Notes: generated by a model not told the origin, from the letters alone. Positions 1,466 through 42,325 are shown, numbered from the stretch's first letter. The stretch: DNA of 64,000 nt from an uncultured Friedmanniella sp. (GCF_964244005.1 NZ_CAXTHG010000005.1:106832-170831); one strand, 5' to 3'. Numbers and translations: made by a program.

Positions 1466-1578
1466 GGGTCGAGTCTTCCGACAATCGTGCTGTGTCACCA
1501 GATAATCGACGGTCGGATCTATGGAAGTTCCTGCTGCGCAGCGGACCCGATCACGGCTCCTGCCCGGTCAGCCGCCGG

Positions 1579-2580: not shown

Positions 2581-3659
2581 CAGACCCGCCCTCCCAACAG
2601 CAGGTGGCGCAGGGCAGGACGTTCGGCGGGTTCGCGCCAGCACGCGTCGACATGGCCGGGCTGGCTGCGGGGCAGCAGCGGCGGCTGCTCGGTGCAGCGG
2701 TCGATCTCGACGGTGCATCGGAGTCGGAAGGCGCAGCCGGTGGGCAGTTGATCGAGCTGCGGTGGCGACCCGGGGATCGCGGTGAGCCGGTCGATGCGAT
2801 CGAGATCGATCCGGGGCACCGACGCCAGGATGCCCCAGGTGTAGGGATGCTGGGGGTGGTAGAAGACCCGGTCCCGGTCGGCCTGCTCGACCACCTTCCC
2901 GGCGTACATCACCGCCACCCGGTCCGCGACGTCGGCGACGATGCCCAGGTCGTGGGTGATCAGCACGATGGCGGTGCCACGGGTCTCCCGGAGCTGGCGG
3001 AGCAGGGCCAGCACTTGGGCCTGGATCGTGACGTCCAGCGCGGTGGTCGGTTCGTCGGCGATCAGGATCTCCGGCTCGCAGGCCAGCGCCATCGCGATCA
3101 TCACCCGCTGCCGCATCCCCCCGGAGAACTGGTGCGGATAGTCCTCCACCCGGCGGTCCGGGGAGGAGATGCCGACCTCGGCCAACAGCTCGACGGCCCG
3201 GGCCCGCGCCTGCTTGGGTCGCAGGTCCAGGTGCAGCCGCAGCACGTCGACGATCTGCCGGCCCACCGTCTTGGTCGGGTTCAGCGAGGTCATCGGGTCC
3301 TGGAAGACCATCGCGATCCGAGAGCCGCGGATCGGTCGGAGCTCCGCGTCGGACAGCTTGACGAGGTCCCGCCCGCCGTACCAGATCTCACCGTCGATCG
3401 AGCGGGCCTGGCCACGGGTCAGCCCGAGCAGGGTCATCGCCGTGACGCTCTTGCCGGAACCGGACTCACCCACCACGGCGAGCACCTCGGCCGGCCGGAG
3501 GTCGAAGGTGACTCCGTCGACGGCACGCACCGGGCCGGTCGGTCCGTCGAAGGTGACCTGCAGGTTGCGTACGCTCAGCACCGGCTCGGCCTGACTCTTG
3601 GTCGGCGGTATCTCCTCGGTCGGGGTCGTCTCGTCGGTCGGCATCAGCGGACTACTCAT
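2580..3659 (-). CDS. Peptide/nickel-type ABC transporter ATP-binding protein (OppD/DppD-like)
   Basis: [42 protein letters not shown]. Confidence 0.95.
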
Positions 3660-12755: not shown

Positions 12756-12880
12756 GCGCCCATTGTGTCCCAGCCGGCCCCGCGGGTAGGCGGGTGTCGC
12801 GGCCCCCGCCCTGGAAATCGACCCCGAGAAGGGGCAATAGTGCCTCCGCGGTCATGATTGGCGCGTCTGGGGGTCGATTC

Positions 12881-14020
12881 TCAGGGCGGAGTGTCGGAGA
12901 GGAGCTCCCGCCGACGGAGGATCGGCAGGACGCCTTCGGCGAACCAGTAGGCCTCCTCGACGTGGGGGTAGCCCGACATCACGAACTCGTCGATACCGAC
13001 GGCGGCGTACTCGGCGATCAGGTCGGCCACCTCGGTGTGGCTGCCGACCAGCGCGGTGCCGGCGCCGCTGCGCATCAGGCCGATACCGGACCAGAGGCCG
13101 GGATGGATCTCCAGGGCGTGGGCGTCCGACGGTGCCGTGCCGCCGTGCAGGGCGCGCATCCGCCGCTGCCCCTCGGACTCACTCGAGGCGAGCACGGCCT
13201 GCGTCCGCCGGACCTCCGCCGGGTCGAGCTGGGCGAGCATGTCGTCGGCAACCGTCCACGCGTCCTCGGAGCGGTCCCGGCTGATCGTGTGCAGCCGGAC
13301 CCCGAACCGGACGCCTCTGCCGGCCTCGGCGGCCAGCGCCCGGATCCGGTCGACCTTGGCGGCCACGTCGGCAGGCGGCTCGCCCCAGGTGAGGTAGACG
13401 TCGACGTGGTGCGCCACCACGACCCCGGCGGCGGGTGAGGAACCGCCCAGGTAGATCGGCGGCACGGTGGCCGGCTGGCGGGTCCGGGCGTCCTCGACGT
13501 CGTAGAAGGTGCCCGAGAAGTCGGTGCCCTCGTTGCCGAAGGAGCCGCGGAAGACCTGCAGGAACTCCGCGGCCCGGGCGTACCGGCTGTCCTTGTCGAT
13601 CCGGTCGCCGAAGCGCAGCTGTTCGGAGCGGTCGCCACCGACCACCACGTTGAGCAGCAGCCGGTCGCCCGAGAGCCGCTGGAAGGTCGACGCCATCTGG
13701 GCGAGCAGCGTCGGGGCGATGAGGCCGGGCCGCAGTGCGACCAGGAACTTGAGCCGCTCGGTCTGCGTGATCAACGCGGACGTGACGACCCAGGCGTCCT
13801 CGCACGGCGTTCCCGTCGGCGTCAGCACGGCGTCGAAGCCCAGGTCCTCGGCCGTCCGGGCCACGTGGGCGAGATATCGCAGGTCTGGTTCCCGGAAGCG
13901 ACCGGCAGTGTCGATCGATCCGCCGGCGCGGCCGAGGTCGGTCGGGACACTGTGCCCGCCGCCGACGAGGGAACGGCTGTCACCGGTCGTGGGCAGGAAC
14001 CAGTCAAAGGTCAGCGCCAT
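12881..14020 (-). CDS. LLM-class flavin-dependent oxidoreductase (SsuD-like alkanesulfonate monooxygenase)
   Basis: FDWFLPTTGD, AEDLGFDAVLTPTG, LKFLVALRPG, DVYLTWGEP, ALVGSH.EVA, FVMSGYPHVEEAY. Confidence 0.9.
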   Translation of the reverse strand: MALTFDWFLPTTGDSRSLVGGGHSVPTDLGRAGGSIDTAGRFREPDLRYLAHVARTAEDLGFDAVLTPTGTPCEDAWVVTSALITQTERLKFLVALRPGLIAPTLLAQMASTFQRLSGDRLLLNVVVGGDRSEQLRFGDRIDKDSRYARAAEFLQVFRGSFGNEGTDFSGTFYDVEDARTRQPATVPPIYLGGSSPAAGVVVAHHVDVYLTWGEPPADVAAKVDRIRALAAEAGRGVRFGVRLHTISRDRSEDAWTVADDMLAQLDPAEVRRTQAVLASSESEGQRRMRALHGGTAPSDAHALEIHPGLWSGIGLMRSGAGTALVGSHTEVADLIAEYAAVGIDEFVMSGYPHVEEAYWFAEGVLPILRRRELLSDTPP

Positions 14021-24919: not shown

Positions 24920-26329
24920 ATGACCCTTCTCCACACGGCCGGGCAGCGACGCCGCGGCTGGACGATCCGCACCGCAGTCACGCTGGTCACGGCAGCGCTC
25001 AGCATCTCCGCCGTCACCGCGTGCAGCGGCGGAGCCGGCAACGTCGGGAGCGGCGGTGACGGCGGAGGCGGTGGTGGAAGCGAGAGCAAGACCATCAACG
25101 TGCTGGCCGTCAACAACCCGCAGATGCTCGACGCGCAGAAGATCACCGACAAGTACTTCACACAGAAGACCGGGATCACGGTGAACTACACGATGCTGCC
25201 GGAGAACGAGGAGCGCGACAAAGCCACCCAGGACGTCGCGAACTCCGCCGGTCAGTACGACGTGACGAACCTGGGCCCCTACGAGGTGCCGGTGTGGAGC
25301 AAGAACAAGTGGTTGACCGACCTGAGCGAGCTGGCCGCCAAGGACCCTGGCTATGACATCGACGACCTGGTCCCCTCGGTCCGCGACGCCATGAGCTCCG
25401 ACGGCACGTTGTACTCGGCGCCATTCGCCACCGAGTCGACCTTCACCGCCTACCGCAAGGACTGGTTCGACGAGCAGGGTCTCACGATGCCGGACAACCC
25501 GACCTGGCCGCAGATCCTCGACCTGGCCAAGAAGCTGAACGACCCGTCGAAGAAGCGGGCCGGTGTCTGCGTACGCGGCCTCGCCGGCTGGGGCCAGAAC
25601 ATGGCGTTGTTCACCGACATGCTGAACACCTTCGGCGGGACCTGGTTCAACCAGGACTGGAGCAGCGGCGTCAAGGACCCTGCGTTTCGCGAGACCATGG
25701 AGTTCTACAAGGAGATCGCCAAGTACGGCCCCAAGGGACAGGCCAGCCTGAGCGTCTCGGACTGCTACAACAACTACATCGCCGGCACCAGCGCGATGTG
25801 GATCGACTCCTCCGCCGCTGGCCCCTCGATCGAGGACCCGAAGGAGTCCAAGGCCGCCGGCAAGACCGGGTACGCGTACATGCCGGTGGTGAAGACCGAG
25901 TACTCCGGGTGGTTGTGGAGCTGGGGCTGGGCGATCCCTCAGGCGGCCAAGAACAAGGACGCGGCCTGGCAGTACATCAGCTGGGTGACCGGCAAGCAGT
26001 ACCCGCAGGACATGGCCCAGGAGCTCGGCTGGTCGCACTACGCGGGCTACATGCGCAAGTCGGTTGACCAGGACCCCGGTTTCGTCGCCGCGAACGACGC
26101 CTTCACCAAGATCACCAGCGGGTCGCTGGAGCACGCCGACCCGAACAACCCCGGGCTCCAGCCGCGGCCCTACGCCGGGATTCAGTACCTCACCATCCCG
26201 GAGTGGCCCGACCTCGGGACGACGGCCGGCCAGCAGCTGCAGGCCGTCCTCGCGGGCACCAAGAGCGTCGACCAGGCGATCGACACGATCGCAGCCGCCG
26301 CTGACAAGGTGTCCTCAGCCCACCAGTAG
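24920..26329 (+). CDS. Sugar/polyol ABC substrate-binding lipoprotein (SmoE-like)
   Basis: VTAC lipobox; VLAVNNPQM, LPENE.R, RGLAGWGQN, SGWLWSWG, RPYAGIQY..IPEW.DLGT. Confidence 0.88.
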   Translation: MTLLHTAGQRRRGWTIRTAVTLVTAALSISAVTACSGGAGNVGSGGDGGGGGGSESKTINVLAVNNPQMLDAQKITDKYFTQKTGITVNYTMLPENEERDKATQDVANSAGQYDVTNLGPYEVPVWSKNKWLTDLSELAAKDPGYDIDDLVPSVRDAMSSDGTLYSAPFATESTFTAYRKDWFDEQGLTMPDNPTWPQILDLAKKLNDPSKKRAGVCVRGLAGWGQNMALFTDMLNTFGGTWFNQDWSSGVKDPAFRETMEFYKEIAKYGPKGQASLSVSDCYNNYIAGTSAMWIDSSAAGPSIEDPKESKAAGKTGYAYMPVVKTEYSGWLWSWGWAIPQAAKNKDAAWQYISWVTGKQYPQDMAQELGWSHYAGYMRKSVDQDPGFVAANDAFTKITSGSLEHADPNNPGLQPRPYAGIQYLTIPEWPDLGTTAGQQLQAVLAGTKSVDQAIDTIAAAADKVSSAHQ

Positions 26330-26345
26330 TCCCCCCAGGGCCCGT

Positions 26346-26378
26346 GCGGGGCGGCGGTCCTCGAGGCCGCCGTCCCGC
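26346..26378 (+). terminator. Intra-operon stem-loop after the substrate-binding protein gene
   Basis: GCGGGGCGGCGGTC-CTCGA-GGCCGCCGTCCCGC hairpin, allowing GU pairs. Confidence 0.45.
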
Positions 26379-26405
26379 TCGCGTCCCTCGCGACGAGGAG
26401 CAGAC

Positions 26406-27371
26406 ATGACCACCTTTGCCGCGCCACCAGCCTCACAGCGGCGGCTCCGACAGCCGAAGGAGCCTCTTCCCCAGTACAGCCGTCGGAAGCTCTGGCGCCT
26501 GCGGGGCCCGCTCCTACCAGCCTTCATCTTCACCCTCGCGCTCACCCAGCTGCCCTTCCTGGTCACGCTCTACATCTCGGTGGTGCGGTGGAACGTCCTT
26601 GAACCCGGTGCGCACCGCTTCGTCGGCCTGGGCAACTACGCAAACGTCGTCACCGACTCCGGCTTCCTCGGCGCCATCGTGCACAGCGTGGAGATGACGG
26701 TGGCCACCGTGTTGATCGCGCTGCTCCTCGGGCTCGGCTTCGCGCTCCTGCTCAACCAGAAGTTCTTCGGCCGGGGCCTCGCACGGACTCTCCTGATCTC
26801 GCCGTTCCTCGTGACACCCGTGGCCGCGGCGCTGATCTGGAAGTACCTGCTCTACAACCCGACCTACGGCCTCTTCAACGGGATCCTCGTCTGGTTGGGG
26901 CAGCTGTTCAACTTCGTCGCGCCCCAGCCAGACTGGGTGTCGAACACCCCGATGGCGGCCATCGTCGCCTCCCTGGCCTGGCAGTGGGTCCCGTTCGAGA
27001 TGCTGATCCTGCTCGCGGGGCTCCAGAGCCAGTCCTCGGATGCGGTCGAAGCTGCCAAGGTCGACGGCGCCAACGCCTGGCAGCTCTTCCGGTACCTGAC
27101 TCTGCCGCACCTTCGCCCGTACCTCGAGCTCGGGATCCTGCTGGGGGTCATCTACATCACGCAGGCTTTCGACGCCATCTACACGATCACCTCGGGCGGG
27201 CCCGGGACGGCAACCACCAACCTGCCCTATCAGGTCTACATCATGGTCTTCCGCAAGTACGACTACGGAGCGGCGGCGGCGGGCGGCACGATCGTGGTCA
27301 TCCTCTCGATCTTCGTCGCCACCTTGGCGCTCCGCGTCATCTCGAGCCTGCTGAAGGAGGACGCGCGATGA
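26406..27371 (+). CDS. Carbohydrate ABC permease (SmoF-like)
   Basis: FVGLGNY, RTLLISPFLVTPV, WQWVPF, EAAKVDGA. Start MTTFAAP. Confidence 0.92.
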   Translation: MTTFAAPPASQRRLRQPKEPLPQYSRRKLWRLRGPLLPAFIFTLALTQLPFLVTLYISVVRWNVLEPGAHRFVGLGNYANVVTDSGFLGAIVHSVEMTVATVLIALLLGLGFALLLNQKFFGRGLARTLLISPFLVTPVAAALIWKYLLYNPTYGLFNGILVWLGQLFNFVAPQPDWVSNTPMAAIVASLAWQWVPFEMLILLAGLQSQSSDAVEAAKVDGANAWQLFRYLTLPHLRPYLELGILLGVIYITQAFDAIYTITSGGPGTATTNLPYQVYIMVFRKYDYGAAAAGGTIVVILSIFVATLALRVISSLLKEDAR

Positions 27372-28246
27372 CCGCGACACTGGCTCGCCCCACCCGCTTC
27401 CACCCCTCGGTCGGGACGGGTCAGCGGGTTCGGCGCCGGCTCGGTGGGAAGCTCGCGCTGACCGTCGTCGCCTGGCTCGCGACCCTGATCTTCGTCCTGC
27501 CGACGCTGTGGATGGTGCTGACCTCATTTCACCAGGAGGTCGACGCCGTCGCGAACCCACCCGCTGTCGCGGCCACTCTCACCCTCGAGTACTACCGCGA
27601 GCTGCTGACCGGCAAGCTCCTCGGACCCTTGATCAACTCGCTGATCGCTTCGATCGTCCCGACGATCCTCGTGGTCGCGCTGGCCATCCCGGCGGCGTTC
27701 GCGCTGGCGATCCGGCAGGTGCCCAAGTGGCGCGACGTGATGTTCTTCTTCCTGTCCACCAAGATGATGCCGGCCGTGGCCGGCCTGCTGCCGATGTACC
27801 TGATCGTGAAGAACCTTGGGCTTCTCGACAACGTGTGGGTGCTCGTCGTGCTGTATCTGTCCGCCAACCTGCCGCTGGGCATCTGGATGATGGCGCAGTT
27901 TTTCCGCGAGATCCCGCGGGAGCTGATCGAGGCCGCCGAGCTCGACGGCGCCGACACCAGGACGATCCTGTGGCGCGTCGTCCTGCCGATGGCCTATCCC
28001 GGTATTGCCGCCACGGCGCTCATCTCGTTCATCTTCTCCTGGAACGAGTTCCTCTTCGCCCTCAACCTCACCGCCACCCAGGCCTACACCGCACCGGTCT
28101 ACCTGATCGGCTTCCTCAGCGGGCAGCGGTTGTTCCTCGCTCACCTGTGTGCTGCGTCGGTCATCGTCTCGCTCCCGGTGCTGATCGCCGGGTTCGCGGC
28201 TCAGGACAAGCTGGTCCAGGGCCTGTCGCTCGGAGCGGTGAAATGA
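27368..28246 (+). CDS. Carbohydrate ABC permease (SmoG-like)
   Basis: STKMMPAVA, IPRELIEAAELDGA, FSWNEF, QDKLVQGLSLGAVK. Confidence 0.92.
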   Translation: MTATLARPTRFHPSVGTGQRVRRRLGGKLALTVVAWLATLIFVLPTLWMVLTSFHQEVDAVANPPAVAATLTLEYYRELLTGKLLGPLINSLIASIVPTILVVALAIPAAFALAIRQVPKWRDVMFFFLSTKMMPAVAGLLPMYLIVKNLGLLDNVWVLVVLYLSANLPLGIWMMAQFFREIPRELIEAAELDGADTRTILWRVVLPMAYPGIAATALISFIFSWNEFLFALNLTATQAYTAPVYLIGFLSGQRLFLAHLCAASVIVSLPVLIAGFAAQDKLVQGLSLGAVK

Positions 28247-29259
28247 AGGCGGTCTTCATCCGCGAGGACGGCTCGATCGACGTCTCGACCACGCCCGACC
28301 CCGCGCCGGGCCGCGATGAGGTGGTGATCGCGGTGGGCGCTGCAGGAATCTGCGGCACGGACCTCCACATCATCGACCGCGAGATCGAGTTCGCCACGCT
28401 GCCTGTCGTGCCGGGCCATGAGCTGTCCGGCACCGTCGTCGCGCTCGGCCCGGACGTGGACGCCCGGTCGGTCGCTCTCGGGGACCGGGTGGCGGTCTCC
28501 CCGGGGATCACCTGCGGGGTCTGTCGATACTGTCGACGTGGGCGTTCCAATCTCTGCCCGCACGCCAGCGGGATCGGGATCTCCCGGAACGGCGGTGCAG
28601 CGGAGTTCGCGGCCGTTCCGGCGGCCAACTGCTACGCCCTTCCGGCGGAGATGCCGATGCACGCCGGCGCCCTGGTCGAGCCGCTCTCCTGCGCGATCCA
28701 CGGCATGGATCTTCTTCCCCGCGGTATTGACGAGGAGTACCTGATCTACGGTGCCGGCACGATGGGCCTGCTGATGATGCAGCTCGCCCTGGCCTCGTCA
28801 GCGCGGTCCGTGAGCGTGATCGACACCAACCCGGGCCGGCTCGAGTCCGCCAGGATGCTCGGAGCACACCATGTGGCGAACTCGGCCGACGACCTGTCGC
28901 GCGAGTACGGCTGGAGCACCGTCATCGACTGCACCGGAGCGGTGGCAGCGATCGAGGACGGACTGTCGCGAGTCGACCGCGGCGGGACCTTTCAGGCGTT
29001 CGGGGTCGCCCGCGGTGATGCGCTGGCGCGGATCTCACCGTTCCGTCTCTACCACGACGAGATCACCATCGTCGGGAGCATGGCGGTCCTCAACAGCTTC
29101 GGCCGGGCAGTCGACGTGATGGCCTCGGGCGCCGTGGACGCTGACGTCATCGTCAGTCACCAGCTCGGGCTCGACGACTACCCGACGGCGATCAACCTCT
29201 TTCGTAACAAGGAGGGCCGAAAGATCATGGTGACACCACCCTCCACATGGGCTGGATGA
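28243..29259 (+). CDS. Zinc-dependent alcohol/polyol dehydrogenase
   Basis: GICGTDLH, GHE, C..CRYC..GRSNLC structural Zn site, EPLSCAIHG, GAGTMG. Confidence 0.93.
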   Translation: MKAVFIREDGSIDVSTTPDPAPGRDEVVIAVGAAGICGTDLHIIDREIEFATLPVVPGHELSGTVVALGPDVDARSVALGDRVAVSPGITCGVCRYCRRGRSNLCPHASGIGISRNGGAAEFAAVPAANCYALPAEMPMHAGALVEPLSCAIHGMDLLPRGIDEEYLIYGAGTMGLLMMQLALASSARSVSVIDTNPGRLESARMLGAHHVANSADDLSREYGWSTVIDCTGAVAAIEDGLSRVDRGGTFQAFGVARGDALARISPFRLYHDEITIVGSMAVLNSFGRAVDVMASGAVDADVIVSHQLGLDDYPTAINLFRNKEGRKIMVTPPSTWAG

Positions 29260-29271
29260 TTGATTCCACGG

Positions 29272-29377
29272 TCAGTGGTCGTTGACGGATTCGATGATCT
29301 GGCGTGGAGGTTTGAAGAAGTGGGCGCAGGGTCGGTTGGTCTCCCCGGCTCGGGTGGGGCGGAGCAGGGTGGTCCAT
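29272..29377 (-). mobile_element. IS982-family transposase fragment
   Basis: Reads TLLRPTRAGETNRPCAHFFKPPRQIIESVND, resembling the IS982 LLRP.R.GE......FKPLRQ.IESVN segment. Confidence 0.6.
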
Positions 29378-29580
29378 CTCCCACTCGTCGTGGTGGCCGT
29401 TGCGGACCACCCACCGGCGACCCAGCTCGTCGACCTGGTCGGCATGGCCCTCGCTGTCAGCGGCCACCTCGGCCGGCAAGGCCGCCGCCAACATCGGCGG
29501 GCACCATCACGCACGACCTCATCAAGCAACGACCTGTCGGCCTCGTTGGCCGAGGCTTCTTCGGGACCTACCGTGAGCAC
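29378..29580 (-). mobile_element. IS256-family transposase N-terminal remnant (frameshifted)
   Basis: GTG-LTVGPEEASANEADRSLLDEVVRDGARR, frameshift, then MLAAALPAEVAADSEGHADQVDELGRRWVVRNGHH, the typical actinobacterial IS256 N-terminus. Confidence 0.75.
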
Positions 29581-29608: not shown

Positions 29609-30400
29609 TCAGGCGTGGCTGTGGACCAGCAGCCGGTAGGGCGGCTGCGAGAACAGCAGGTTGGCCTGCTGGGGTCCGACCGAGGAGGCGTGCTCGTCGT
29701 CGACGGGATCGTGGACGCTCGCCTGCCAGGAGCGGACCGCCGCGTCGGTGAGCTCGAGGTAGTTGCCCGTGGTGGGCAGTGCCGTGGCCCCGTCGCGCTG
29801 GTTGAGGACGTGCTGCAGCCGCCGTACCGAGTCTGACGCCATGGTCCCGAAGCAGAGCTTGGCCACGTAGACGTCACCGCGGCTCCAGTCCTCAGTCACG
29901 CTGTGCTGGACGTCGTCGGTGCCCACCCGCTGCTTCCAGGTCTTGGCCCGCTCGACCGCGTCCTGGGCGTAGGCGTCACCGCCGTTGTAGGCCTTGGCGC
30001 TCTGGTAGAAGCTTCCGGTCGAGCTTCAGGTGCGGTGCAGGACGGAAATGCCGAACCGGATGTTGTCGGCGGGCACCCAGGGCTGCAGACCCTGCTGCTC
30101 CATCTGGTCAAAGAATCCCCGGAACGTGATCTGCATCGGACCGACGCCGTTGCTCGACTGGTGCCGGATCAGCTCGCGGAACTTCTGGTACCGCTCCTTG
30201 GTCACCTCGATGTCGTGACCAGACTCGGAAAAGGCGCCACCCCGGTCGTGGCCGAAGATGTTCGCGCCGCCCGTCTCCTTCTGCAGGATGGTGCAGCCGA
30301 GGTAGAAGGGAAATCCTGTCTGGTCACAGGCGGCGGCCAGCGCCTCGACGTTGGTCAGCCACTGTCCGGCTGCGGCGATCTGTTCTTCGGTGACGCTCAT
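29609..30400 (-). pseudogene. Lysozyme/lytic-transglycosylase-like peptidoglycan hydrolase with C-terminal PG-binding-like domain; one in-frame TGA at 30026-30028
   Basis: GGAGGT RBS and ATG at 30400. LQKETGG (catalytic Glu), NGVGPMQIT, PADNIRFG; past the TGA the same frame reads AKAYNGG..YA, then KLCFG..SDSVRRLQHVLN...TGNY...TDAAVRSWQ. Confidence 0.7.
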
Positions 30401-30588
30401 TCCGACCTCCACGAGAAACGTTCCCTGACCCGTACGTGAGAGGTCACGGCGACGTCGGAAATACCGTTCAGGACGACCTTTTCCACCCGCTGGTCGACGG
30501 CTTGGTGACCGGTATCACGCCACCGTGGAGGCGCTCTGTCTGGGCACCGAGCGCCACGACGGCGCTCACCTTTCGGATGGAGCGCACC

Positions 30589-32430
30589 ATGCCAGAAACA
30601 CCGCAGGAACAGCTCGAGCAGGCGGGCGGGATCACCAAAGCGCTGCTCGACACCCTCGACCAGCTGGTTGACCGCATCCTCGGTCAGCAGACGGTGGACA
30701 AGAGCGGCAAGCCGCTCCGTCAGGTCGCGTACATGCACATGCCGAACGGCCTGCCCGTCGACCCGCGTCAGTACGCCAACCCCTGGACCCCGGCCGGTGG
30801 AGCCACCCTGGCGAAGCTGAACAACGACGGCACCCTGCCGAAGGTCGACCCGGTGCCGCCGCCCGTGCCGCAGCCGGCCGCCCCTGCCGGCACGCCGCCG
30901 GTCACCCCGGTGCCGGTCAAGCCCACCCAGGACCAGGCCCTGATGGCGTCGATGCAGGCCGCCCTGAACACGGCCTGGCTCTTCGACGAGATGCCCATGG
31001 TGACCGGGGACGGGACCTACCGGCCCTACCCGAGCACCCGCAAGCTCAGCTCGGCGTACGAGGGTCTCGTGCACTCAGTCCAGGCCGTCCCCCCGCCGCC
31101 GCAGCCGGCCGACGTCGCGCAGGCCCTGGCGGATGCCGAGAAGGTCCTCTACAACCACGACGCCGACGGCAACATCACCGGTCCCTCGATCAAGTTCCAG
31201 AACTGGATCAAGTTCTCGCAGAGCTACGCCGACGCCAAGGCCACCTTCGCCACCCAGCAGGCCCAGGCCATGGCCGACCCGATCCTCGGTTCGGTGTGGC
31301 CCGCGACCGGCGCCTCGCTGCAGCAGAAGGTGGACACTGCCTACCAGATCTGGCGCAGCTCGGGCGCCGACGACGTCGAGAAGGCCCTCGACCTGATGAA
31401 CTCCGAGGGCGGCTCGGCGGCCGCGCACTTCGTCTCCCAGGCCCGCGAGCTGCTCGACAAGTGGGACCTCTCGCTGGCCGGCGCCGTCGCGGTCCGCACC
31501 CCGTACACCCAGGTCACCCCGGCCAGCTGGTACGACCACACCAACAATGACATCGGTTTCGCCGGGATCTCGGCCTCGTCGGACCGCTACCACAGCAGCG
31601 GCGGCGCGCAGAGCAGCAGCTTTGCCAACAGCTGGTACAAGGGGACGAGCTCCTCGACCCAGGCCAGTGCGGGTGCGAGCTTCTTCGGTATCAGCATCGG
31701 CGGTTCGGGGGGCGGCTCGTCCTCGGAGAGTGACAGCGCCGGTCACCAGGGCGGTCAGTCCTCCAGCCAGCACGCCGACTCCTCCACCACGGCGTCGATC
31801 TCGTGCGAGTTCGGCGTGATCAAGATCGAGCGGCCCTGGTTGTTGACCGAGCTGTTCCACATCGGTGGCTGGTACGTACCCGGTGAGAAGGCCGGCTGCG
31901 TGAGCGACGGCACGATCGCCGGCCAGGACGGCGACGACAAGAAGCTGCTGCCGATGATCACCACCCAGGCGCTGGTCATCCGCAACGTGACGATCACCGC
32001 CACCGGCTGGGGCGCGGCGGGCCAGGCCCTGTCGGAGTACCAGGCCAACCAGGCGGCGCACTCCGACAGCAGCTCCTGGAACGCGGGCGGCAGCGTCGGC
32101 TTCATGGGCTTCGGCGGCTCCGTCAGCCACACCGAGAGCGACTGGGCCGGCAGCCAGTCCTCCGACGCCTCGTCGAGCTGGGGCTTCTCCTACGACTCGT
32201 TCACCGACACGGGCACGCTGACCATCAACGGCTCGCAGATCGCCGGCTACATCGGCGAGATCGTCGGCTCGAACCCGCGGCTCGACGACCCGAACGTCGA
32301 CAAGCCGGCGGACACGACGACGGACCCCGCGCCCGCCGACAGCACGCCGACGACTGACGGCACCCCGACGTCCGACGGCAGCGGCACCCCCGTTGCCCCG
32401 ATCCTGACGCCCGCCGGCGCCAACGTCTGA
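30589..32430 (+). CDS. Uncharacterised 613-aa protein A with two Ser/Gly-rich hairpin-like segments (candidate pore-forming subunit)
   Basis: Strong coding bias, GGAG RBS before MPETPQ, no signal peptide, Pro/Thr/Asp-rich tail; paralogous to the next gene. Confidence 0.85.
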   Translation: MPETPQEQLEQAGGITKALLDTLDQLVDRILGQQTVDKSGKPLRQVAYMHMPNGLPVDPRQYANPWTPAGGATLAKLNNDGTLPKVDPVPPPVPQPAAPAGTPPVTPVPVKPTQDQALMASMQAALNTAWLFDEMPMVTGDGTYRPYPSTRKLSSAYEGLVHSVQAVPPPPQPADVAQALADAEKVLYNHDADGNITGPSIKFQNWIKFSQSYADAKATFATQQAQAMADPILGSVWPATGASLQQKVDTAYQIWRSSGADDVEKALDLMNSEGGSAAAHFVSQARELLDKWDLSLAGAVAVRTPYTQVTPASWYDHTNNDIGFAGISASSDRYHSSGGAQSSSFANSWYKGTSSSTQASAGASFFGISIGGSGGGSSSESDSAGHQGGQSSSQHADSSTTASISCEFGVIKIERPWLLTELFHIGGWYVPGEKAGCVSDGTIAGQDGDDKKLLPMITTQALVIRNVTITATGWGAAGQALSEYQANQAAHSDSSSWNAGGSVGFMGFGGSVSHTESDWAGSQSSDASSSWGFSYDSFTDTGTLTINGSQIAGYIGEIVGSNPRLDDPNVDKPADTTTDPAPADSTPTTDGTPTSDGSGTPVAPILTPAGANV

Positions 32431-32442
32431 ACGGAGCTGCAG

Positions 32443-33951
32443 ATGTCTGACGCCACTGGGCTCCTGGCTCTCGGCCAAGCACTCGATGACTACCTGAGCA
32501 GTGAGTACGCGCCGCCGCCAGGAACCCAGACGGCGTTGGGCTTCGTCCCCGGGGTCGCCGTCAACCCGTCCTCCTTCTCTCCGACCGGCGTCGTCAACCC
32601 GATGGCGGTCCAGACCTTCCTGAACGTCGTGACCAACCTGATGGGACCCGTCGTCGACGGCCGTTTCTCCGGCTTCCTCTCGGCCGCGACAATGTACGGG
32701 GCGTTGATCAACATGGCGACACCTCTCGACCCGCTCGGGACCCCCGCGGCCGACGCCTTCCTCCGGGTGGTCAACACCGCGCGGTCGGCCTTCGGCGGCA
32801 ACGGGCCGAAGGAGCTGGTGGCCGTGCCGCTGAACTGGTACGACGCCACCAGCACCGGCGGCTGGTCGACCTACACCACCACCTCGAGCGAGCAGTCGGG
32901 CGAGGGCCAGAGCAGCACGAGCGGCACGGGCGAGCCGCCTACCGACACCTTGCCCGACCCCCACCAGTCGCCGCCGATCATCGACCAGACCCGGTTCGAG
33001 AAGATGTGGCGCTTTCGCACTCTCGACGAGACCGCGATCGCCGAGGTGGTCGTGCCGACCGTCGACCCGCCCGTGGCGGTCGAGGTGACCCAGCCTCCGG
33101 TGGTCGTCGCGGAGCAGCTGGTGAAGAGCCACCAGCCGGTCGTCCGTGACCACGTCGGGGTGGACCTGTCGGAGACCTCCGTCCGGACCAAGGGCCGGGT
33201 GTTCCAGACCAGGCTTTCGGCTTCGTCGGCGGACCTCCTGGTGCCCTCGACCGGCCGGCTCCAGCTGCGGGCGCCCACGCTCGCCGCCGGGTTCGTCGCC
33301 ACGCCCCTGGCGCGGACCGTCGACGATGACGCAGCGGTACGCGTCCTCGCCGCCGGCTCTCGGCGCCAGCTGGTCGCCGCGCTCGCCCAGGACAACTCGG
33401 TCATCGCCGGGGACGGCGACCTCGCGGTCTCCCAGGCGCTGGCGCACCTGATCCGGGCCCAGTCGCCGGCCGTGGTGGCCGAGATCGACGACGACCGCGA
33501 GACCACCTCGACCCAGTCGATGGAGACCAACGAGCTCACCCTCTCCCTCGAGTACTGCTTCGTGCAGATCTCCCGCGACGGGTGGTGGAACGACGCGGTG
33601 CTCCGGATGCCGCGCTGGTACGCCCCCGGTCAGAAGGCGGGCGAGTTCAGCTCAGGGACCGCCGTCGGCGGGCTGCCCCTCGGCGTCCCGATCGCCATGG
33701 TGCTGACCCGCAACGTCTCGGTGAGCGGTCGCTGGACCGAGTCCGACCGGACGGCCGCCGAGAGCCACACCAGTCTCGGCCCCTGGTCGATGCAGGACTC
33801 GCAGATGGCCTACGACGCCTCCTCGGAGACGGCCACGCTGACCATGCCCAGCATGCAGGTGGTGGCGGTCGTCTGTGCCGTCCTGCCCGCCCTGCCGCCG
33901 TCGGACGACCCGAGCCTCCCGGCCGCCGCGCCGGACCCGGCCACCCACTAA
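32443..33951 (+). CDS. Uncharacterised 502-aa protein B, paralog of protein A
   Basis: GGAG RBS, starts 12 bp after A. Shares P..WYD, W(Y).PG.KAG..S.G, RNV....W and T.TLT....Q....DDP motifs with A. Confidence 0.85.
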   Translation: MSDATGLLALGQALDDYLSSEYAPPPGTQTALGFVPGVAVNPSSFSPTGVVNPMAVQTFLNVVTNLMGPVVDGRFSGFLSAATMYGALINMATPLDPLGTPAADAFLRVVNTARSAFGGNGPKELVAVPLNWYDATSTGGWSTYTTTSSEQSGEGQSSTSGTGEPPTDTLPDPHQSPPIIDQTRFEKMWRFRTLDETAIAEVVVPTVDPPVAVEVTQPPVVVAEQLVKSHQPVVRDHVGVDLSETSVRTKGRVFQTRLSASSADLLVPSTGRLQLRAPTLAAGFVATPLARTVDDDAAVRVLAAGSRRQLVAALAQDNSVIAGDGDLAVSQALAHLIRAQSPAVVAEIDDDRETTSTQSMETNELTLSLEYCFVQISRDGWWNDAVLRMPRWYAPGQKAGEFSSGTAVGGLPLGVPIAMVLTRNVSVSGRWTESDRTAAESHTSLGPWSMQDSQMAYDASSETATLTMPSMQVVAVVCAVLPALPPSDDPSLPAAAPDPATH

Positions 33952-33994
33952 AGCCCCACCCACGCTCACACCCACGAAAGATCGAGGTTTCACC

Positions 33995-35110
33995 ATGGCC
34001 ACCTACCCCAACGCCGAGTGGCGGCCGCTCGCCGCCGGCAGCCCCGGTGCCCCGATGGACGCGCACGACATCGTCTGCGTCCACACGATGGTCGGCTTCC
34101 TCGCCGGCACCGAGTCGATGTTCCGCGAGAACGGCTGGGCTGGCACCGAGTCGCACCTCGGGGTCGGCGGCCCCGCCGACGGCGCCCTGGACGGCACGGT
34201 CTACCAGTGGGTCGACACCGACGACCAGGCCGACGCCAACCTGCAGGGCAACCACCGTCTGATCAGCATCGAGACCAGCGACGGGGGCGACGAGAAGAAC
34301 CCGTGGTCGGACGCACAGCTCGACGCGATCACCGGCATCATCGTCTGGGCGTGCCAGACCTACGACATCCCGGCGGAGCTGATCGCCGACAGCACGGCCG
34401 GGCAGCGCGGCATCGGCTATCACCGCCAGGGCATCGACCCGTGGCGGGTGGCGGCCGGTGAGAAGTGGTCGAACAGCAACGGCAAGGTCTGCCCGGGCGA
34501 CGTCCGGATCGCCCAGCTGGTCGACACGATCATCCCGCGCGTCCAGGCGCAGGTGTCGGGCTCCGGGTCCGGGACGGTGTCCACGGCCCTCATCCTCGAC
34601 GCGATCAGTCCGGACGCCGGTGTCGCCGGTGACCAGGTCGTGCTCACCGGCTCCGGGTTCGCGCCGGCGGACGGGGTGTCGTTCGGCGGCGTCTGGGTCG
34701 AGACGTGGACCATCGACAGCGACAGCCAGATCACCGCGACCGTGCCCGAGCCGAACGCCAGCGGCTCGGTCTCGGTGGCGGTCAGCACCCCCGACGCGAC
34801 GAGCGACGGGGTCTGGTTTAGCTACGCCGACAGCTCTACGCCGCCCTCGCCGCCGACGTCATCACTGACCCTGTCCTTCATCGGTCCCGACACCAGCACC
34901 GCCGGCAGCCAGGTGGTGCTCACCGGGTCCGGGTTCCTGGCGGCGAACGGGGTGTCGTTCGGTGACGTATGGGTCGACACCTGGACCATCGACGACGACA
35001 GCCAGATCACCGCCACCGTGCCCGAGCCGGTCACCAGCGGCTCGGTCTGGGTCTCGGTGAGCTCGCCGGACGCGACGAGCGACTCGATCTCTTTCGCCTA
35101 CGAGGAGTGA
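33995..35110 (+). CDS. N-acetylmuramoyl-L-alanine amidase (Amidase_2, Zn) with two C-terminal IPT/TIG domains
   Basis: GAGG RBS; VCVHTMVG, SHLGVG, ISIETSD, IGYHRQG, GKVCPG (H/H/C Zn ligands); two ISPD.G..G.QVVLTGSGF...VSFG repeats. Confidence 0.88.
   Translation: MATYPNAEWRPLAAGSPGAPMDAHDIVCVHTMVGFLAGTESMFRENGWAGTESHLGVGGPADGALDGTVYQWVDTDDQADANLQGNHRLISIETSDGGDEKNPWSDAQLDAITGIIVWACQTYDIPAELIADSTAGQRGIGYHRQGIDPWRVAAGEKWSNSNGKVCPGDVRIAQLVDTIIPRVQAQVSGSGSGTVSTALILDAISPDAGVAGDQVVLTGSGFAPADGVSFGGVWVETWTIDSDSQITATVPEPNASGSVSVAVSTPDATSDGVWFSYADSSTPPSPPTSSLTLSFIGPDTSTAGSQVVLTGSGFLAANGVSFGDVWVDTWTIDDDSQITATVPEPVTSGSVWVSVSSPDATSDSISFAYEE
34634..35083 (+). repeat. Tandem intragenic duplication of a 174-bp IPT/TIG coding unit (34634-34807 and 34910-35083)
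   Basis: Both copies run CAGGT.GTGCTCACCGG.TCCGGGTTC ... GACAGCCAGATCACCGC.ACCGTGCCCGAGCCG ... GACGCGACGAGCGAC, with the same length and no gaps. Confidence 0.9.
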
Positions 35111-35114
35111 CGGT

Positions 35115-35145
35115 CTCGTGCCCCCTATCCTAATGGGGGCACGAG
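35115..35145 (+). terminator. Intrinsic terminator-like hairpin ending the A-B-amidase operon
   Basis: CTCGTGCCCCC-N9-GGGGGCACGAG, a perfect 11-bp stem 4 bp after the stop codon. Confidence 0.75.
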
Positions 35146-35325: not shown

Positions 35326-35874
35326 CGCTACCAAGCGTTCGTCATCAACACCCGGAGGGGTCGGCTCGGGTTCCTCGAAGCCCGGCATCGCGCGCACGCC
35401 CGGGTCGAGGACCGGATCCGGATCGCAAGAGACACCGGCCTGGGCCGGCTCCCGTCGCGGGAGTCGCCATCCACCAGGTGTGGGTCCAGATCGCCGCAAT
35501 AGCGGCCGATCTGACCGGCTGGCTCCAGCTGCTCGCCCTGCATGAGGCCTCCGACCTGGTCCGCGCTCGACCGAAAACGCTGCGGTTCCGGACCCTGCAC
35601 GTGCCCGCCCGCTACAGCCACGGCGGCCGACGACGCCGCCTCCGGATACCGCCCGGCTCGCCCTGGGCAACTCAGATCGCCGGCCGCGTTCACTCGGATC
35701 ACCGCCATCCCGGCACCCATCTGACCGGTCGAACCGGCCGACCACCACCACCCCACGGAACCCGCCCCGGAGCGCACCCGGCGGTCCGCCCCTGCCCGAA
35801 AGCAGAAACCATGACTCCAAGCCCAACCACGATCAAAGGCGGCTCCGACGCCGACCTCATCAAAGGACCGGGGC
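35326..35874 (+). mobile_element. IS1380-family transposase 3' remnant (frameshifted)
   Basis: RYQAFVINT...FLEARHRAHARVEDRIRIARDTGLGRLPSRE, then WVQIAAIAADLTGWLQLLAL...RPKTLRFRTLHVPAR...RRRLRI...PWA. Confidence 0.85.
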
Positions 35875-36068
35875 TGGGCGGCGAGTGCCTGGCGAAGACT
35901 CGACCAGTCACGGTTGGTGTCGTTGCGTTCGAGGCAGACCCTGCTCGTTGCTGATGCCAAACGTGGCGAGGCATCCCATTGGTCGCTGAGGTTCAAAGCG
36001 GCTTGGGGGCGTGCTCTCCTTTGAAGTTGCCTTGGCGAGCCTCAGGCCCCACACATCTAAATGACAAG

Positions 36069-39181: not shown

Positions 39182-42100
39182 CTAAGGCGAGATCCCCGCC
39201 CCGACGACGCCGATCAGGGAGGTGGCCAGCGCGCGGAGCCGTGGGCCGAGGAAGTATTCGCCGGTCTCGGCGGCGACCTCCGCCGACTGGCGGGCCCGCT
39301 CCCGGGCCGTCGCCAGGTCACCGTGCCGCGCGTACGCCTCGGCGGCGAGCATCCGGTAGGTCGGCGCGAAGATCTTGATGCCGCTGTTCCGGTAGGCCGC
39401 GGCTGCGGCGTCAGCCCGCTCCGGCCCGGTCGGGTCGCCCTTCATCGCGTCGGCCCACGCCTGCACCTGGTCGGCGTGCAGCTCGAAGATGCCGAACCCC
39501 AGCCGGTCGGAGAGCCGGCGGCACTGCTCGCCACGGCGGCGGGCCTGGTCGGCGTCGCCGCGCATGGTGGCCAGCAGGGCGAGGTAGAAGTCGCACTTCA
39601 CCTGAACGTCCTCAGCCGTCGTCGAGGAACGCAGCAGCCCAGCCACCTCCTCGTCGGCCGCGGCTTCGTTCCCGACCGCGTGCTCGAGCATCGCGCGGTA
39701 GGCGTAGACGTCCTCGACCATGTGGAACAGCCGACCGGGCAGCTGGATGTCGACGCCGTCGGCCAGCAGCTGGCGGAGGACGTCCAGCTCGCGCCGGGCG
39801 GTCCTCAGGTCGCCGGACAGCAGCGCCAAGTGTCCGAGCACGAAGCGGGCTGTGCTGGCGGCGATCGGGGCCGGTCGGTCGGCCAGCACCTCCGCCGCGG
39901 CGGCCATCGACCCCGCGTAGCGGCCACGGACGGCGGTGGCGACGACGGTGCCGAGCCAGGCGGCCGCCGACGCGGCGTCGGTCGGCGCGGCCGGGGCCGG
40001 CGTCGGCAGTCGTTCCTCGGCGCTGCTCGCGGCCCACATCCAGAGGGCGTCGAGATGGCCTTGCACCAGGGCGTGCAGGGACTGGCGGACGACGGGGTCG
40101 GGGACCGCCGCCGCGAGCCGGAGGGCCTGGACGAGCGTGTCGTGGGCCGCTTCGGTGGCGGAGCGGCGTAACGCGTCCTCGGCCGCCGACACGAGATAGG
40201 GGACAGCTGCGGCCGGTCCGACCGCCGGCGCCGCGAGCACCAGCTGACGGGCGACCTCGAGCACCTCGTCGGTCTGCTGGGGGTTGCGCTGCTGCAGGGC
40301 GGCCGCGATCTTGGCGTGCAGGTGGACGCGGCGGGCCACCGAGAGGCGGGCGACCAGCGTCTCGCGGACGAGCGCGTGGCTGAGCGCGAACCGGCCCGTC
40401 CCGTCGCCGGTCTCGACCAGCAGCCCGGCCAGCAGCGCGGCCTCGCAGGAGTCGAGGACCTGTTCCTCGTCCAGGCCCGTCGTCCGGGCCAGCAGGTCGG
40501 GGGTGACAGGCCCGGACCCCAGCAGGGCCGCCACCCCGAGCAGCGAGACCGTGGCTGCCGGCAGCCGGTCGAGCCGGCGTCCCAGGACGTCCAGCACCTC
40601 GGCGGGCAGAGCCTGCTGGGCCGCGCTGGTGGTGAGTCCTCGCTCGGCGCTCAGCAGCTTGACCAGCTCGGTCACGAAGAGCGCGTTCCCACCCGTGCGT
40701 TCGGTGACGGCCGCGACGACCCCCGGCTCGGGCTCGCGGCCGTCGATGGTGCGGATCAACGCCGAGACGTCCTCGGCCGCCAGCGGCGCCAGCTCGACCC
40801 GGGTGACCAGGTCGCGGGGCAGCGAGCCGAGGGCCCGGTCGAGCTCGGCGGTGGGCTCGTCCGAGCGCACCGCGACCGCCACGAGGAGGCCGTCGGGGGC
40901 GAGCTCCTCGACCGCCAACCGGAGCAGGGTCAGCGTGTCGCGGTCGACCCAATGGGCGTCGTCGACCAGCACCGCCACGGGTCCCGACCGCTGAGCCCGC
41001 TCGAGCAGGTCGAGCACCCCGCGGAACAGCAGCGACCGGCTGAGCGGCGGCCGCGTCTCGGACGGGTCCTCCGGTGGAACGGGCTGCAGCGCGGCGAGAG
41101 CCGCCGCCGACGGGTCGTCGTCGCCGCGGGTTCCCTCGGCCAGGCCGGGGGTGGCGGCGGTGAGCTCGCGCAGCACGGTGACCCAGGGCCAGAGCGCCGG
41201 GGCCGCCCCGTCAGGCAGCCCGTGCCCGTGCACGACCCGGCCGCCGGACCGCCGCACGACCTCCTCGAGCGCGTCGAACACGGTGGTCTTGCCGGCGCCC
41301 ATCGGGCCGCGGACGACCACCAGCCCTCCTGACCCGGAGGACGCGGCGCGCACCACGCTCGCCAGGGCGGCCAGCGCCGGTCGGCGCCCGACCAACGGCC
41401 ATCCTGCGGTGGTCCGGGCCGGGTCGGGCCGGTCTGGATCGGCAGCGGGCAGCGACGGCTCCACCTGGACCAGGCTGCGGTCGGCGCTCGGTCGCGGGGC
41501 CCGCAGGACCGGGTCGTGCTGCAGCAGCTGGCGTTCGAGGTCGCGCAGGGCGGGCGACGGGTCGAGGCCGAGCTCGTCGGCGAGCGTCCGGCGCAGCTGC
41601 CCGTACGTGTCCAGCGCCTCGGCCTGCCGACCCGTGCGGTAGAGCGCGATCATCAACGCGCGCCAGCCGCGCTCCCGGAACGGTCGGGCTGCGACCACGC
41701 GACGTGCCTGGTCGACGACGACCTCGGGCTCACCGACCGCGAGCCTGGCCTCCAGCAGCGTCTCGACGGCCGCGTCACGCAGGTCACTGAGCCGGGTCGC
41801 CTCCGTCCGGGCGAACGGCACGTCGGCCAGGTCGCCCAACGCCTCGCCCGACCACAGGCCGAGCGCCTGGTCGAGGTCGGCGACGGCTGACCGCAGCGCG
41901 GTCGGCTCCCCGGACTGGGCGGCCGCGCGGCCCCGGTCCAGCAGCGCGCTGAACCGGGATAGGTCCGTCGCCTCCGCCGGCAGGCTCAGCACCCACCCGG
42001 GTGGCTGAGTGGTGATCTGGGCAGGCGTCGGTTCCAGCACCCGCCGCAGCCGGGACACGTACGCCCGCAGCGTGAGGACGGCCTGCGCCGGTGGGCCGTC

Positions 42101-42253
42101 GGGCCAGAGCTCGTCGATCAGCCGGTCCGTGCTGACGACCCGGCCGGCTTCCAGCGCGAGCAGGGCGAAGACGGCCCGCTGCTTGACGCCGCCGAGCGGC
42201 AGGGATCGCCCCTCGTGCCGGCACGTCACCGGGCCCAGTAGCCTCACCTGCAT
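39182..42253 (-). CDS. AfsR/SARP family regulator (OmpR-type HTH, BTAD, AAA ATPase)
   Basis: VRLLGP...KQRAVFALLAL, LIDELWPD, BTAD (PFRERGW..LM.ALYR.GRQAEAL), GPMGAGKTT, VDDAHWVD, RTGGNALFV. Confidence 0.92.
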   Translation of the reverse strand: MQVRLLGPVTCRHEGRSLPLGGVKQRAVFALLALEAGRVVSTDRLIDELWPDGPPAQAVLTLRAYVSRLRRVLEPTPAQITTQPPGWVLSLPAEATDLSRFSALLDRGRAAAQSGEPTALRSAVADLDQALGLWSGEALGDLADVPFARTEATRLSDLRDAAVETLLEARLAVGEPEVVVDQARRVVAARPFRERGWRALMIALYRTGRQAEALDTYGQLRRTLADELGLDPSPALRDLERQLLQHDPVLRAPRPSADRSLVQVEPSLPAADPDRPDPARTTAGWPLVGRRPALAALASVVRAASSGSGGLVVVRGPMGAGKTTVFDALEEVVRRSGGRVVHGHGLPDGAAPALWPWVTVLRELTAATPGLAEGTRGDDDPSAAALAALQPVPPEDPSETRPPLSRSLLFRGVLDLLERAQRSGPVAVLVDDAHWVDRDTLTLLRLAVEELAPDGLLVAVAVRSDEPTAELDRALGSLPRDLVTRVELAPLAAEDVSALIRTIDGREPEPGVVAAVTERTGGNALFVTELVKLLSAERGLTTSAAQQALPAEVLDVLGRRLDRLPAATVSLLGVAALLGSGPVTPDLLARTTGLDEEQVLDSCEAALLAGLLVETGDGTGRFALSHALVRETLVARLSVARRVHLHAKIAAALQQRNPQQTDEVLEVARQLVLAAPAVGPAAAVPYLVSAAEDALRRSATEAAHDTLVQALRLAAAVPDPVVRQSLHALVQGHLDALWMWAASSAEERLPTPAPAAPTDAASAAAWLGTVVATAVRGRYAGSMAAAAEVLADRPAPIAASTARFVLGHLALLSGDLRTARRELDVLRQLLADGVDIQLPGRLFHMVEDVYAYRAMLEHAVGNEAAADEEVAGLLRSSTTAEDVQVKCDFYLALLATMRGDADQARRRGEQCRRLSDRLGFGIFELHADQVQAWADAMKGDPTGPERADAAAAAYRNSGIKIFAPTYRMLAAEAYARHGDLATARERARQSAEVAAETGEYFLGPRLRALATSLIGVVGAGISP

Positions 42254-42325
42254 AGCGAGCAGTGTGGCACCACGCCGCGGGGGCCGACCAGGTCTGGCGA
42301 GCACCGAGGGACGTGTCGGCAGGGC

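Follow-up and report, generated by a model that had tools for sequence, protein, structure and literature searches.

A paralogous gene pair in an uncultured Friedmanniella sp., probably the core of a module tied to bacterial envelope destruction

The A-B operon and the relationship of its two large proteins

The DNA analysed here is a stretch of 64,000 nucleotides from an uncultured Friedmanniella sp. (GCF_964244005.1 NZ_CAXTHG010000005.1:106832-170831), called the window in the following, which has the base composition of actinobacterial DNA (about 70% G+C) and is also present in lichen metagenome runs. On its plus strand lies an operon of two large genes, A and B, followed by an amidase gene, with A and B at the coordinates given for them in an earlier reading of the sequence (the original prediction), which had proposed a binary complex of A and B with pore-forming or antibacterial action. 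The results showed that the two genes occur together almost invariably and often beside genes for envelope-degrading enzymes, and the A-B pair probably forms the conserved centre of a hitherto undescribed module of two proteins tied to the destruction of the bacterial envelope, either as a means of cell lysis or as a toxin. All features are collected in Table 1.

Neither protein could be placed in any known enzyme or structural family, as had been suspected: no usable match was found in Pfam, NCBIfam, PHROGs or PADLOC, the only NCBIfam matches being far below their cut-offs, and the profile of the A family gave 0 matches at E <= 10 when run against PDB sequences with hmmsearch. The proposed paralogy of A and B was borne out by BLASTP of the C-terminal ~180 residues (E 2e-9), by comparison of the two family profiles with hhalign (98.6% probability, E 1.1e-15, A residues 393-574 aligned with B residues 356-496), and by reciprocal jackhmmer searches, in which, at every locus, the A profile scored B with 50-128 bits and the B profile scored A with 157-263 bits. 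A and B are therefore true paralogs, which have in common a C-terminal beta-sheet domain with invariant residues R415, P416, W417, W428, S439 and G441 in the A family. The homology also reaches farther upstream, to a P-x-(S/N)-W-Y-D motif found in both proteins just before an insertion site, at which A carries a ~60-residue Ser/Gly-rich loop and B an unrelated, predicted disordered region of ~240 residues. Across the family, both inserts of A are composed of 29% Ser and 17% Gly and have a hydrophobic centre of 9-10 residues. A P-x-x-P-x-D-D-P motif, which conceivably serves as a processing or hinge site, closes the common domain in both paralogs (A 32275-32292; B 33898-33918) and is conserved; it is followed by variable low-complexity tails or by peptidoglycan-binding domains. 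The disordered middle of B (32800-33525, residues 120-361) contains, in Nocardioidaceae-type sequences, repeated V-R-D-H(-R) motifs, which are possible short linear motifs.

The start codon of A agrees with the N-termini of its homologs, and no open reading frame (ORF) other than A, B and the amidase gene was found inside the operon. The product of the third gene carries Amidase_2 (E 2.6e-11) and IPT/TIG (E 1.5e-12) domains and matches PHROG endolysin families (phrog_1493, E 2.5e-15), from which it is predicted to be an endolysin-like N-acetylmuramoyl-L-alanine amidase. The terminator with which the operon had been said to end was also recovered, as a hairpin which begins six bases past the amidase stop codon and folds with -32 kcal/mol (z = -5.7 against shuffles), but it has no T-run and was for that reason not seen by the consensus scan. 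Upstream of A, between the divergent genes, the scan recovered no sigma-70 consensus, a result that is uninformative for actinobacteria.

When the N-termini of A (MPETPQEQ), B (MSDATGLL), the amidase and the divergently encoded lysozyme-like protein were read, no evident signal peptide was recognised in any of the four, as the original prediction had stated, and no segment resembling a transmembrane helix was found in A, B or the amidase. Export of A and B by a type VII secretion system or by the Sec/Tat pathways was ruled out by their occurrence in Proteobacteria and by these N-termini.

Conservation of the pair and its envelope-degrading neighbours

Homologs of A form 74 clusters at 90% identity, all of which are annotated as hypothetical, and the nearest relatives (76-78% identity) come from metagenome-assembled genomes (MAGs) of Nocardioidaceae and Marmoricola. 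An exhaustive profile search extended the superfamily to 1342 cluster representatives at E <= 1e-3 and to 533 at 1e-10, and among 65 diverse members no informative Pfam domain fusion was found (two weak Porin_4 matches and one DctM match). A genome scan yielded 32 loci in Actinomycetota, Chloroflexota, Acidobacteriota, Alphaproteobacteria, Betaproteobacteria and Cyanobacteria, with two further copies on megaplasmids of Neorhizobium and Paraburkholderia. The homolog search with the B-family alignment returned only the close B set already known and one fragment. No relative of A was found in 50,697 phage records by tblastn, none was confirmed by a pattern scan of IMG/VR, and the flanks of the inspected loci showed no phage genes. 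A phage origin of the pair was ruled out by the lack of a relative in the phage records or of one confirmed in IMG/VR.

The homologs are never singletons. Two outcomes by which the original prediction would have been refuted, a match of A or B to a known family unrelated to pores and homologs that mostly stand alone away from hydrolases, were thus not seen. B adjoins A in 38 of 39 non-redundant loci (labelled by L-numbers, with 8-10 kb looked at on each side), the one exception being a contig that ends at A, and the gap between the two genes is usually just a few bases. Most loci are arranged as A-B, those of Chloroflexota as B-lysozyme-A, and a single Caulobacteraceae MAG has B-A. The recurrence of wall hydrolases beside the pair, also part of the original prediction, was seen across phyla: when neighbouring enzymes were called from precomputed Pfam annotation and from our own profile scans, an envelope-degrading gene or fusion was present in about 20 loci, or roughly half, and nine types of peptidoglycan hydrolase were found near the pair, spread over five phyla. 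No match of the profiles seeded with these families is farther than 3.1 kb from the pair, and most share its strand; in the eight loci for which unbiased Pfam annotation had been precomputed, no wall hydrolase was found in the outer flanks. When Pfam families were counted in the 148 nearest neighbours, PG_binding_1 was the commonest; the top ten also included Glucosaminidase, GH25, Hemopexin, TIG, Tle1-like and Muramidase, and the only other families at that level were of the generic SDR type (adh_short, adh_short_C2, KR). The concentration within 3.1 kb, the hydrolase-free outer flanks and this census together support a link between A-B and hydrolases that is more than chance.

The enzymes themselves are of one kind in their lack of export features: about 20 of them were read, and each starts directly with a catalytic or binding domain and has no evident signal peptide. 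In addition, B itself is joined to wall-binding domains in some lineages, namely by fusion to a C-terminal PG_binding_1 domain in Chloroflexota (E 2e-13) and, in eight Streptomyces/Kitasatospora loci, by a tail homologous to the peptidoglycan-binding domain of the adjacent M23 enzymes.

It could be argued that this neighbourhood is incidental, A and B having an unrelated cytosolic function and residing jointly with the hydrolases in variable genomic islands. About half of the loci lack a recognisable envelope enzyme, several lie among unrelated metabolic genes, and other island-type genes (SIR2, STAND, CHAT) occur nearby, all of which agrees with such a reading. However, nine hydrolase types in five phyla, all close to the pair, most on its strand and none in the outer flanks, would be hard to obtain in this way, as would the fusion of B to peptidoglycan-binding domains in at least two independent forms, and we consider a merely incidental association very improbable.

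The second hydrolase of the original prediction, a lysozyme-like gene transcribed divergently from A, did not hold up in the same way as the amidase. An in-frame TGA divides its single frame into parts of 128 aa and 139 aa, so that the gene is either a pseudogene or needs readthrough, and from its sequence it is probably a pseudogene. Its product matches no hydrolase profile in Pfam, NCBIfam or PHROGs and no solved structure; PG_binding_1 was recovered only below threshold (E 0.002; 18.7 bits, the cut-off being 23 bits), and SLT-like motifs (E-T, GPMQ, AYNGG) are seen by eye only. The gene adjoins A-B in no other locus compared. Of the two hydrolases described as flanking the pair, one is a broken gene, while the operon, the paralogy, the terminator and the insertion sequence (IS) debris of that description all stand, and it is largely right.

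Table 1. Features of the window (positions counted from its first letter) and envelope-related enzymes and domains found beside the A-B pair in the compared loci
Feature	Position or loci	Strand	Remarks
IS debris, left	29375-29550 (about)	-	IS256-family transposase N-terminal fragment, frameshifted, truncated
SLT/lysozyme-like gene, probable pseudogene	29609-30412	-	PG_binding_1-like C-terminus; single frame with in-frame TGA at 30026-30028
Divergent intergenic region upstream of A	30413-30588		GGAG ~7 nt before ATG
Gene A	30589-32430	+	613 aa; longer paralog; founding member of unannotated family
A insert 1	31594-31782	+	residues 336-398; Ser/Gly-rich, hydrophobic centre ASFFGISIG; low pLDDT
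A copy of common C-terminal beta-sheet domain	31765-32310	+	residues 393-574; ends in P-x-x-P-x-DDP
A insert 2	32050-32184	+	residues 488-532; Ser/Gly-rich, hydrophobic centre SVGFMGFGG; gap in B alignments
Gene B	32443-33951	+	502 aa; shorter paralog; 12 nt after A
Third gene, predicted amidase	33995-35110	+	371 aa; Amidase_2 (residues 26-168) and two C-terminal IPT/TIG domains
Terminator hairpin	35115-35145	+	11-bp perfect GC-rich stem, 9-nt loop, no T-run
IS debris, right	35478-35954	+	DDE_Tnp_1_4 (IS1380-like) transposase C-terminal fragment, PF13701
SARP/LAL-type regulator (BTAD + Trans_reg_C + AAA_16)	39182-42304	-	1040 aa; 4 kb downstream of operon
Amidase_2 + TIG	window, L009		same architecture in L009, also after B
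GH24-like lysozyme + TIG	L008, L024; also L019
GH25	L004, L007, L014
GH108	L042
GH19-like	L033, L035
Muramidase PF11860 + PG_binding_1	L020, L026
Hemopexin + Glucosaminidase	L006, L029, L037, L040
M23 + PG_binding_1	L006, L029, L030, L037, L040
PASTA	L007
Tle1-like phospholipase (Pfam T6SS_Tle1-like_cat)	L029 (Streptomyces), L038 (Caulobacteraceae)		E 1e-82 and 4e-70
Lipase-like alpha/beta hydrolase	L030
Peptidase_C70	L036

Fold comparisons and likeness to known systems

The AlphaFold2 (AF2) model of A (pLDDT 62, pTM 0.56) begins with a helix-hairpin at the N-terminus, continues through a Pro-rich linker and a helical region, and then shows a long-stranded sheet broken by the two low-confidence inserts. 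The model of B (pLDDT 58) is confident at residues 5-119 and 362-495, with 65 residues at 90 or above, and disordered from 120 to 361. When these models were searched with Foldseek (A and B against a PDB set of 350,542 chains, and B also against BFVD), nothing was found at E <= 0.001. Below significance, ranks 1-3 for B were all bacterial gasdermins, 7n51 (E 0.049), 7n50 (E 0.094, prob 0.41) and 7n52, with E up to 0.39, followed by a bacterial gasdermin (bGSDM) oligomer at rank 9 (E up to 1.6) and GSDMB at rank 42; for A, 7n52 was at rank 3 (E 0.52), behind antibody artefacts. That two independent models reach the same few gasdermin entries is a lead from predicted structures and no demonstration.

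The toxin families with which the original prediction had compared A and B fared less well, and the analogy with MACPF/CDC, pleurotolysin-type and aerolysin-type toxins was not upheld by any sequence or fold match. The MACPF/CDC fold is a bent sheet of four strands with two helical clusters (TMH1/TMH2) at its sides, and no MACPF, CDC or aerolysin chain was among the PDB matches listed by Foldseek for A or B, whose models are of moderate quality; the MACPF (PF01823) and thiol-activated cytolysin profiles gave no Pfam or NCBIfam match at E <= 0.1 for A or B, nor in the 65 superfamily members; aerolysin, ETX-MTX2 and Toxin_10 gave no Pfam or Foldseek match, and the inserts have no long alternating polar/hydrophobic pattern. 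In the same way, Binary_toxB and PA14 gave no Pfam match for A or B, the PADLOC defence-system models matched none of A, B, the amidase and the lysozyme-like protein, and a comparison of the A family with human GSDMD-N by hhalign, for which the query sequence was approximate, gave no signal (prob 0.05%). The stretch ASFFGISIGG in insert 1 of A may resemble the insertion loop of the anthrax toxin component PA. Two-component pore-formers such as BinA/BinB are built from paralogs or partners, and A-B resembles pleurotolysin A/B, CDCL and BinA/BinB in being two adjacent, related or cooperating proteins with candidate membrane-active loops on one of them only. Unlike these systems, A and B have no MACPF, CDC, aegerolysin or Toxin_10 profile or fold match and no signal peptides, and the hydrophobic stretches of A come nowhere near the length of the TMH1/TMH2 regions in MACPF/CDC proteins.

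Similar to A and B, the bacterial gasdermins (7n50, 7n51, 7n52, 8sl0) are cytosolic proteins that lack a signal peptide and occur sporadically in soil bacteria. The confident core of B (~250 residues) is about the size of a gasdermin N-terminal domain, whose fold has a twisted antiparallel sheet as its core, and the two flexible inserts in the sheet domain of A sit where gasdermins refold segments into hairpins. Bacterial gasdermins carry a short C-terminal peptide that is inhibitory until cleaved off, and they make large membrane pores; in A and B, the P-x-x-P-x-DDP motif and the variable tails stand at the corresponding end. The differences are that A and B have no sequence or profile similarity to gasdermins in Pfam or PADLOC, that their length is 2-2.5 times greater, with additional regions (N-terminal, helical and disordered), and that they always form a paralog pair whose partners are wall hydrolases and lipases and not a protease. 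The gasdermin-like RCD-1-1 and RCD-1-2 of Neurospora are cytosolic variants of one protein, proposed to become membrane-active on meeting; in contrast to A-B, they are allelic variants of different individuals, with no operon and no wall enzymes.

The holin-endolysin cassettes of phages, which have bacterial derivatives in lysis-dependent 'type 10' secretion, also place signal-less hydrolases with catalytic and wall-binding domains beside a presumed membrane-breaching component, and the likeness extends to the match of the amidase with PHROG endolysin families and to the way in which hydrolase types are interchangeable among A-B loci. They differ in that the window operon has no small transmembrane holin, A and B being large, soluble and devoid of transmembrane helices, and in that A-B has no homolog in the phage records searched and no spanins and is also accompanied by phospholipases. 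In our literature search, no paper was found that describes the A or B family, or systems which combine gasdermin-like proteins with hydrolases. The A and B proteins, their obligatory pairing and the spectrum of their cargo are without precedent in what was searched, while, by analogy, the logic of a membrane breach combined with a wall hydrolase is already known from holin-endolysin cassettes, and that of a breach alone from gasdermins.

The lack of a significant match to any pore-former fold is what would be expected if A and B did not form pores at all and were a wall-associated scaffold or regulator pair by which peptidoglycan hydrolases are recruited, activated or restrained, for instance in hyphal remodelling, germination or division, with the Ser/Gly-rich and disordered regions acting as flexible linkers. 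Long predicted disorder in B and low-confidence loops in A would suit this role, as would the association with wall enzymes and wall-binding domains and not with a membrane protein. Yet a cytosolic protein that has no export signal cannot get to the wall unless the membrane is breached, and Tle1-like phospholipase and lipase-like neighbours are ill-suited to wall housekeeping. The occurrence of the pair is moreover sporadic and accessory, not that of a core-genome function, and the gene does not look essential, with IS debris around it in the window. A scaffold of this kind is accordingly judged improbable, somewhat less so than an incidental neighbourhood.

Candidate functions and the wider neighbourhood

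Through the combination of these results, we tentatively favour A-B as a regulated inside-out lysis module, which would breach the membrane for endolysin-like enzymes. The enzymes beside the pair have no signal peptides and would need a breached membrane to get to the wall, and the window operon has no holin, so that breaching by A-B is the simplest model. The module would be induced, probably by activators of the SARP, LAL or LuxR type encoded nearby; cytosolic A would then breach the cytoplasmic membrane via its two Ser/Gly-rich, hydrophobic-tipped loops, and B may act as the partner or controller of A and later dock on peptidoglycan. The endolysin-like cargo, in the window the Amidase_2-TIG enzyme, would thereby gain the wall and lyse the cell, and the purpose could be altruistic death or the release of either the cell contents or, as weapons, the enzymes. 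The presence of two hydrophobic-centred inserts in A and of neither in B fits the idea, put forward in the original prediction, that one subunit supplies membrane-active loops.

Several observations weigh against this model. The inserts of A are mostly polar and are not classical amphipathic transmembrane hairpins, and membrane activity, with pore formation by A-B, is a candidate function that is unproven. The gasdermin matches are sub-significant, with TM-scores of about 0.2 and root-mean-square deviations of about 9 Å, and were obtained with mediocre models. The hallmarks of bacterial gasdermins are an N-terminal cysteine (C3/C4) for palmitoylation and an adjacent protease, found in 43 of 50 loci (Johnson et al., bioRxiv 10.1101/2021.06.07.447441); the aligned A and B families have no cysteine among their first 20 residues, and a protease lies near A-B in just 2 of 39 loci, L004 (CHAT and S8, 5-9 kb away) and L036 (Peptidase_C70), and not in the window. 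Roughly half of the loci have no recognisable hydrolase, the module has no known trigger, and the transmembrane proteins that adjoin the pair in some loci (one of 382 aa in Streptomyces, one of 120 aa in L009) could be the real membrane component. Finally, the peptidoglycan-binding tail of B would be just as fitting if the protein attacked other cells from outside.

The latter possibility corresponds to the original prediction, in which A-B is a binary pore-forming or antibacterial toxin acting on other cells from outside; the hydrolases and phospholipases would open the wall and membrane of the target or free the toxin from its producer, and the peptidoglycan-binding domain of B would dock on the target. 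The conservation of the pair and its association with hydrolases and phospholipases are equally in line with a toxin, and so are the fusions of B to peptidoglycan-binding domains, the patchy, IS- or plasmid-associated occurrence that is typical of competition genes, and the local activators of the type found with antibiotic clusters (SARP/LAL). The accessory enzymes, an amidase, a muramidase and a Tle1-like lipase among them, belong to known classes of interbacterial effectors, being of the same three activity classes as the Tae, Tge and Tle effectors of type VI secretion (by the T6SS). In contrast to T6SS effectors, however, the inspected loci contain no T6SS or other secretion-system genes and no immunity-like third conserved gene, either with the pair or with the Tle1-like enzymes, and many of the hosts are Gram-positive bacteria, which have no T6SS. 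No component bears an export signal, and neither A nor B matches MACPF/CDC, aerolysin or the B components of binary toxins. A toxin of this kind would still need lysis for its release, and the proposal therefore folds back into that of inside-out lysis. In general, the evidence does not separate the killing of other cells from lysis of the producer; since export signals, immunity genes and secretion-system genes are all missing, we lean towards action from inside and consider an outside toxin an unlikely but serious alternative, less improbable than a wall scaffold.

A wider claim would be that A-B founds a widespread new class of two-component membrane-breaching proteins, gasdermin-like or of a new fold, which substitute for holins in cellular genomes. 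This is possible but doubtful, and stands below inside-out lysis and above an outside toxin in our estimation. Such a class would number some 1300 sequence clusters or more, from at least six phyla, and would pass signal-less hydrolases and phospholipases across the membrane for regulated lysis, as a non-phage, non-Sec route to the wall common to monoderm and diderm bacteria.

If inside-out lysis by A-B is correct, it would provide a new protein route by which folded, signal-less lytic enzymes leave the cytoplasm, one that is cellular and not phage-encoded and that occurs in soil bacteria of either type, Gram-positive or Gram-negative. It would also provide a candidate executioner for regulated lysis events that have no known effectors, such as the release of the gene transfer agent of Caulobacter, for which the downstream lytic effector was stated to be unidentified in a 2026 study (PMC13236601), and an annotation for a dark superfamily with over a thousand clusters. 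Should the gasdermin lead hold, the fold would be extended to an architecture of paired paralogs whose coupling is with wall hydrolases and not with proteases. Even if A and B form no pores, the invariant pairing and the links to hydrolases and peptidoglycan binding make A-B a well-defined, testable module.

Activators are often encoded near the pair, namely small BTAD/SARP proteins in Streptomyces, GerE-type proteins in Alphaproteobacteria and MalT-like STAND proteins in rhizobia. A small BTAD gene lies upstream of A-B in the Streptomyces loci L006, L029, L031, L037 and L040, and the window itself has a large SARP/LAL-type regulator gene downstream of the operon. In rhizobial loci, a conserved ORF of ~150 aa directly precedes A-B on the same strand (L002 6081-9776; L015 3566-7665; L017 3570-7672; L041 4679-6781), and is itself preceded by a ~1056-aa MalT-like STAND protein in L002, L015 and L017 and by an unannotated 525-aa hypothetical protein in L041. 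The 382-aa protein of Streptomyces, which has three predicted C-terminal transmembrane segments and is a possible membrane partner, is encoded immediately upstream of A (L006 8579-9724; L029 6764-7906; L037 5418-6896) and is absent from the window. In L009, the closest genomic relative, a holin-like ORF of 120 aa with three transmembrane segments follows the amidase gene (12534-12893), and in its place the window has the terminator and IS debris and no homolog. The conserved neighbours of 134, 150, 169, 314, 382 aa and others gave no Pfam, PHROG or PDB match, except for a weak SH3_3 match and one unnamed PHROG.

The IS debris was found on both sides of the operon, as originally described. For the left fragment, the separate ORFs have no Pfam match, and the peptide spliced over the frameshift is 62-78% identical to annotated IS256 transposases by tblastn. 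The right fragment matches profile positions 358-423 of 435 with E 9e-06, its 24.6 bits falling short of the gathering cut-off of 34.7 bits. Genes for a sugar ABC transporter and a zinc alcohol dehydrogenase, which lie to the left of the operon in the window (24920-29259), also flank the pair of a Nocardioidaceae MAG, on the opposite side (L004 13314-21535), which suggests a common chromosomal neighbourhood with rearrangement. In L004, CHAT, Peptidase_S8 and sigma-70 factor genes are also found near the pair (149-5176). These are of the defence-island type, as are genes near some other pairs, such as SIR2_2 with a 1123-aa protein in L005 (13959-18235). In Oscillatoriales (L036 2873-3999), an extra A-like fragment lies past B and is followed by the Peptidase_C70 (AvrRpt2-like) cysteine protease, and in Kitasatospora (L032 11304-14450) a RamC-like lanthionine synthetase/kinase, an enzyme of the SapB-type morphogen, is encoded directly downstream of B.

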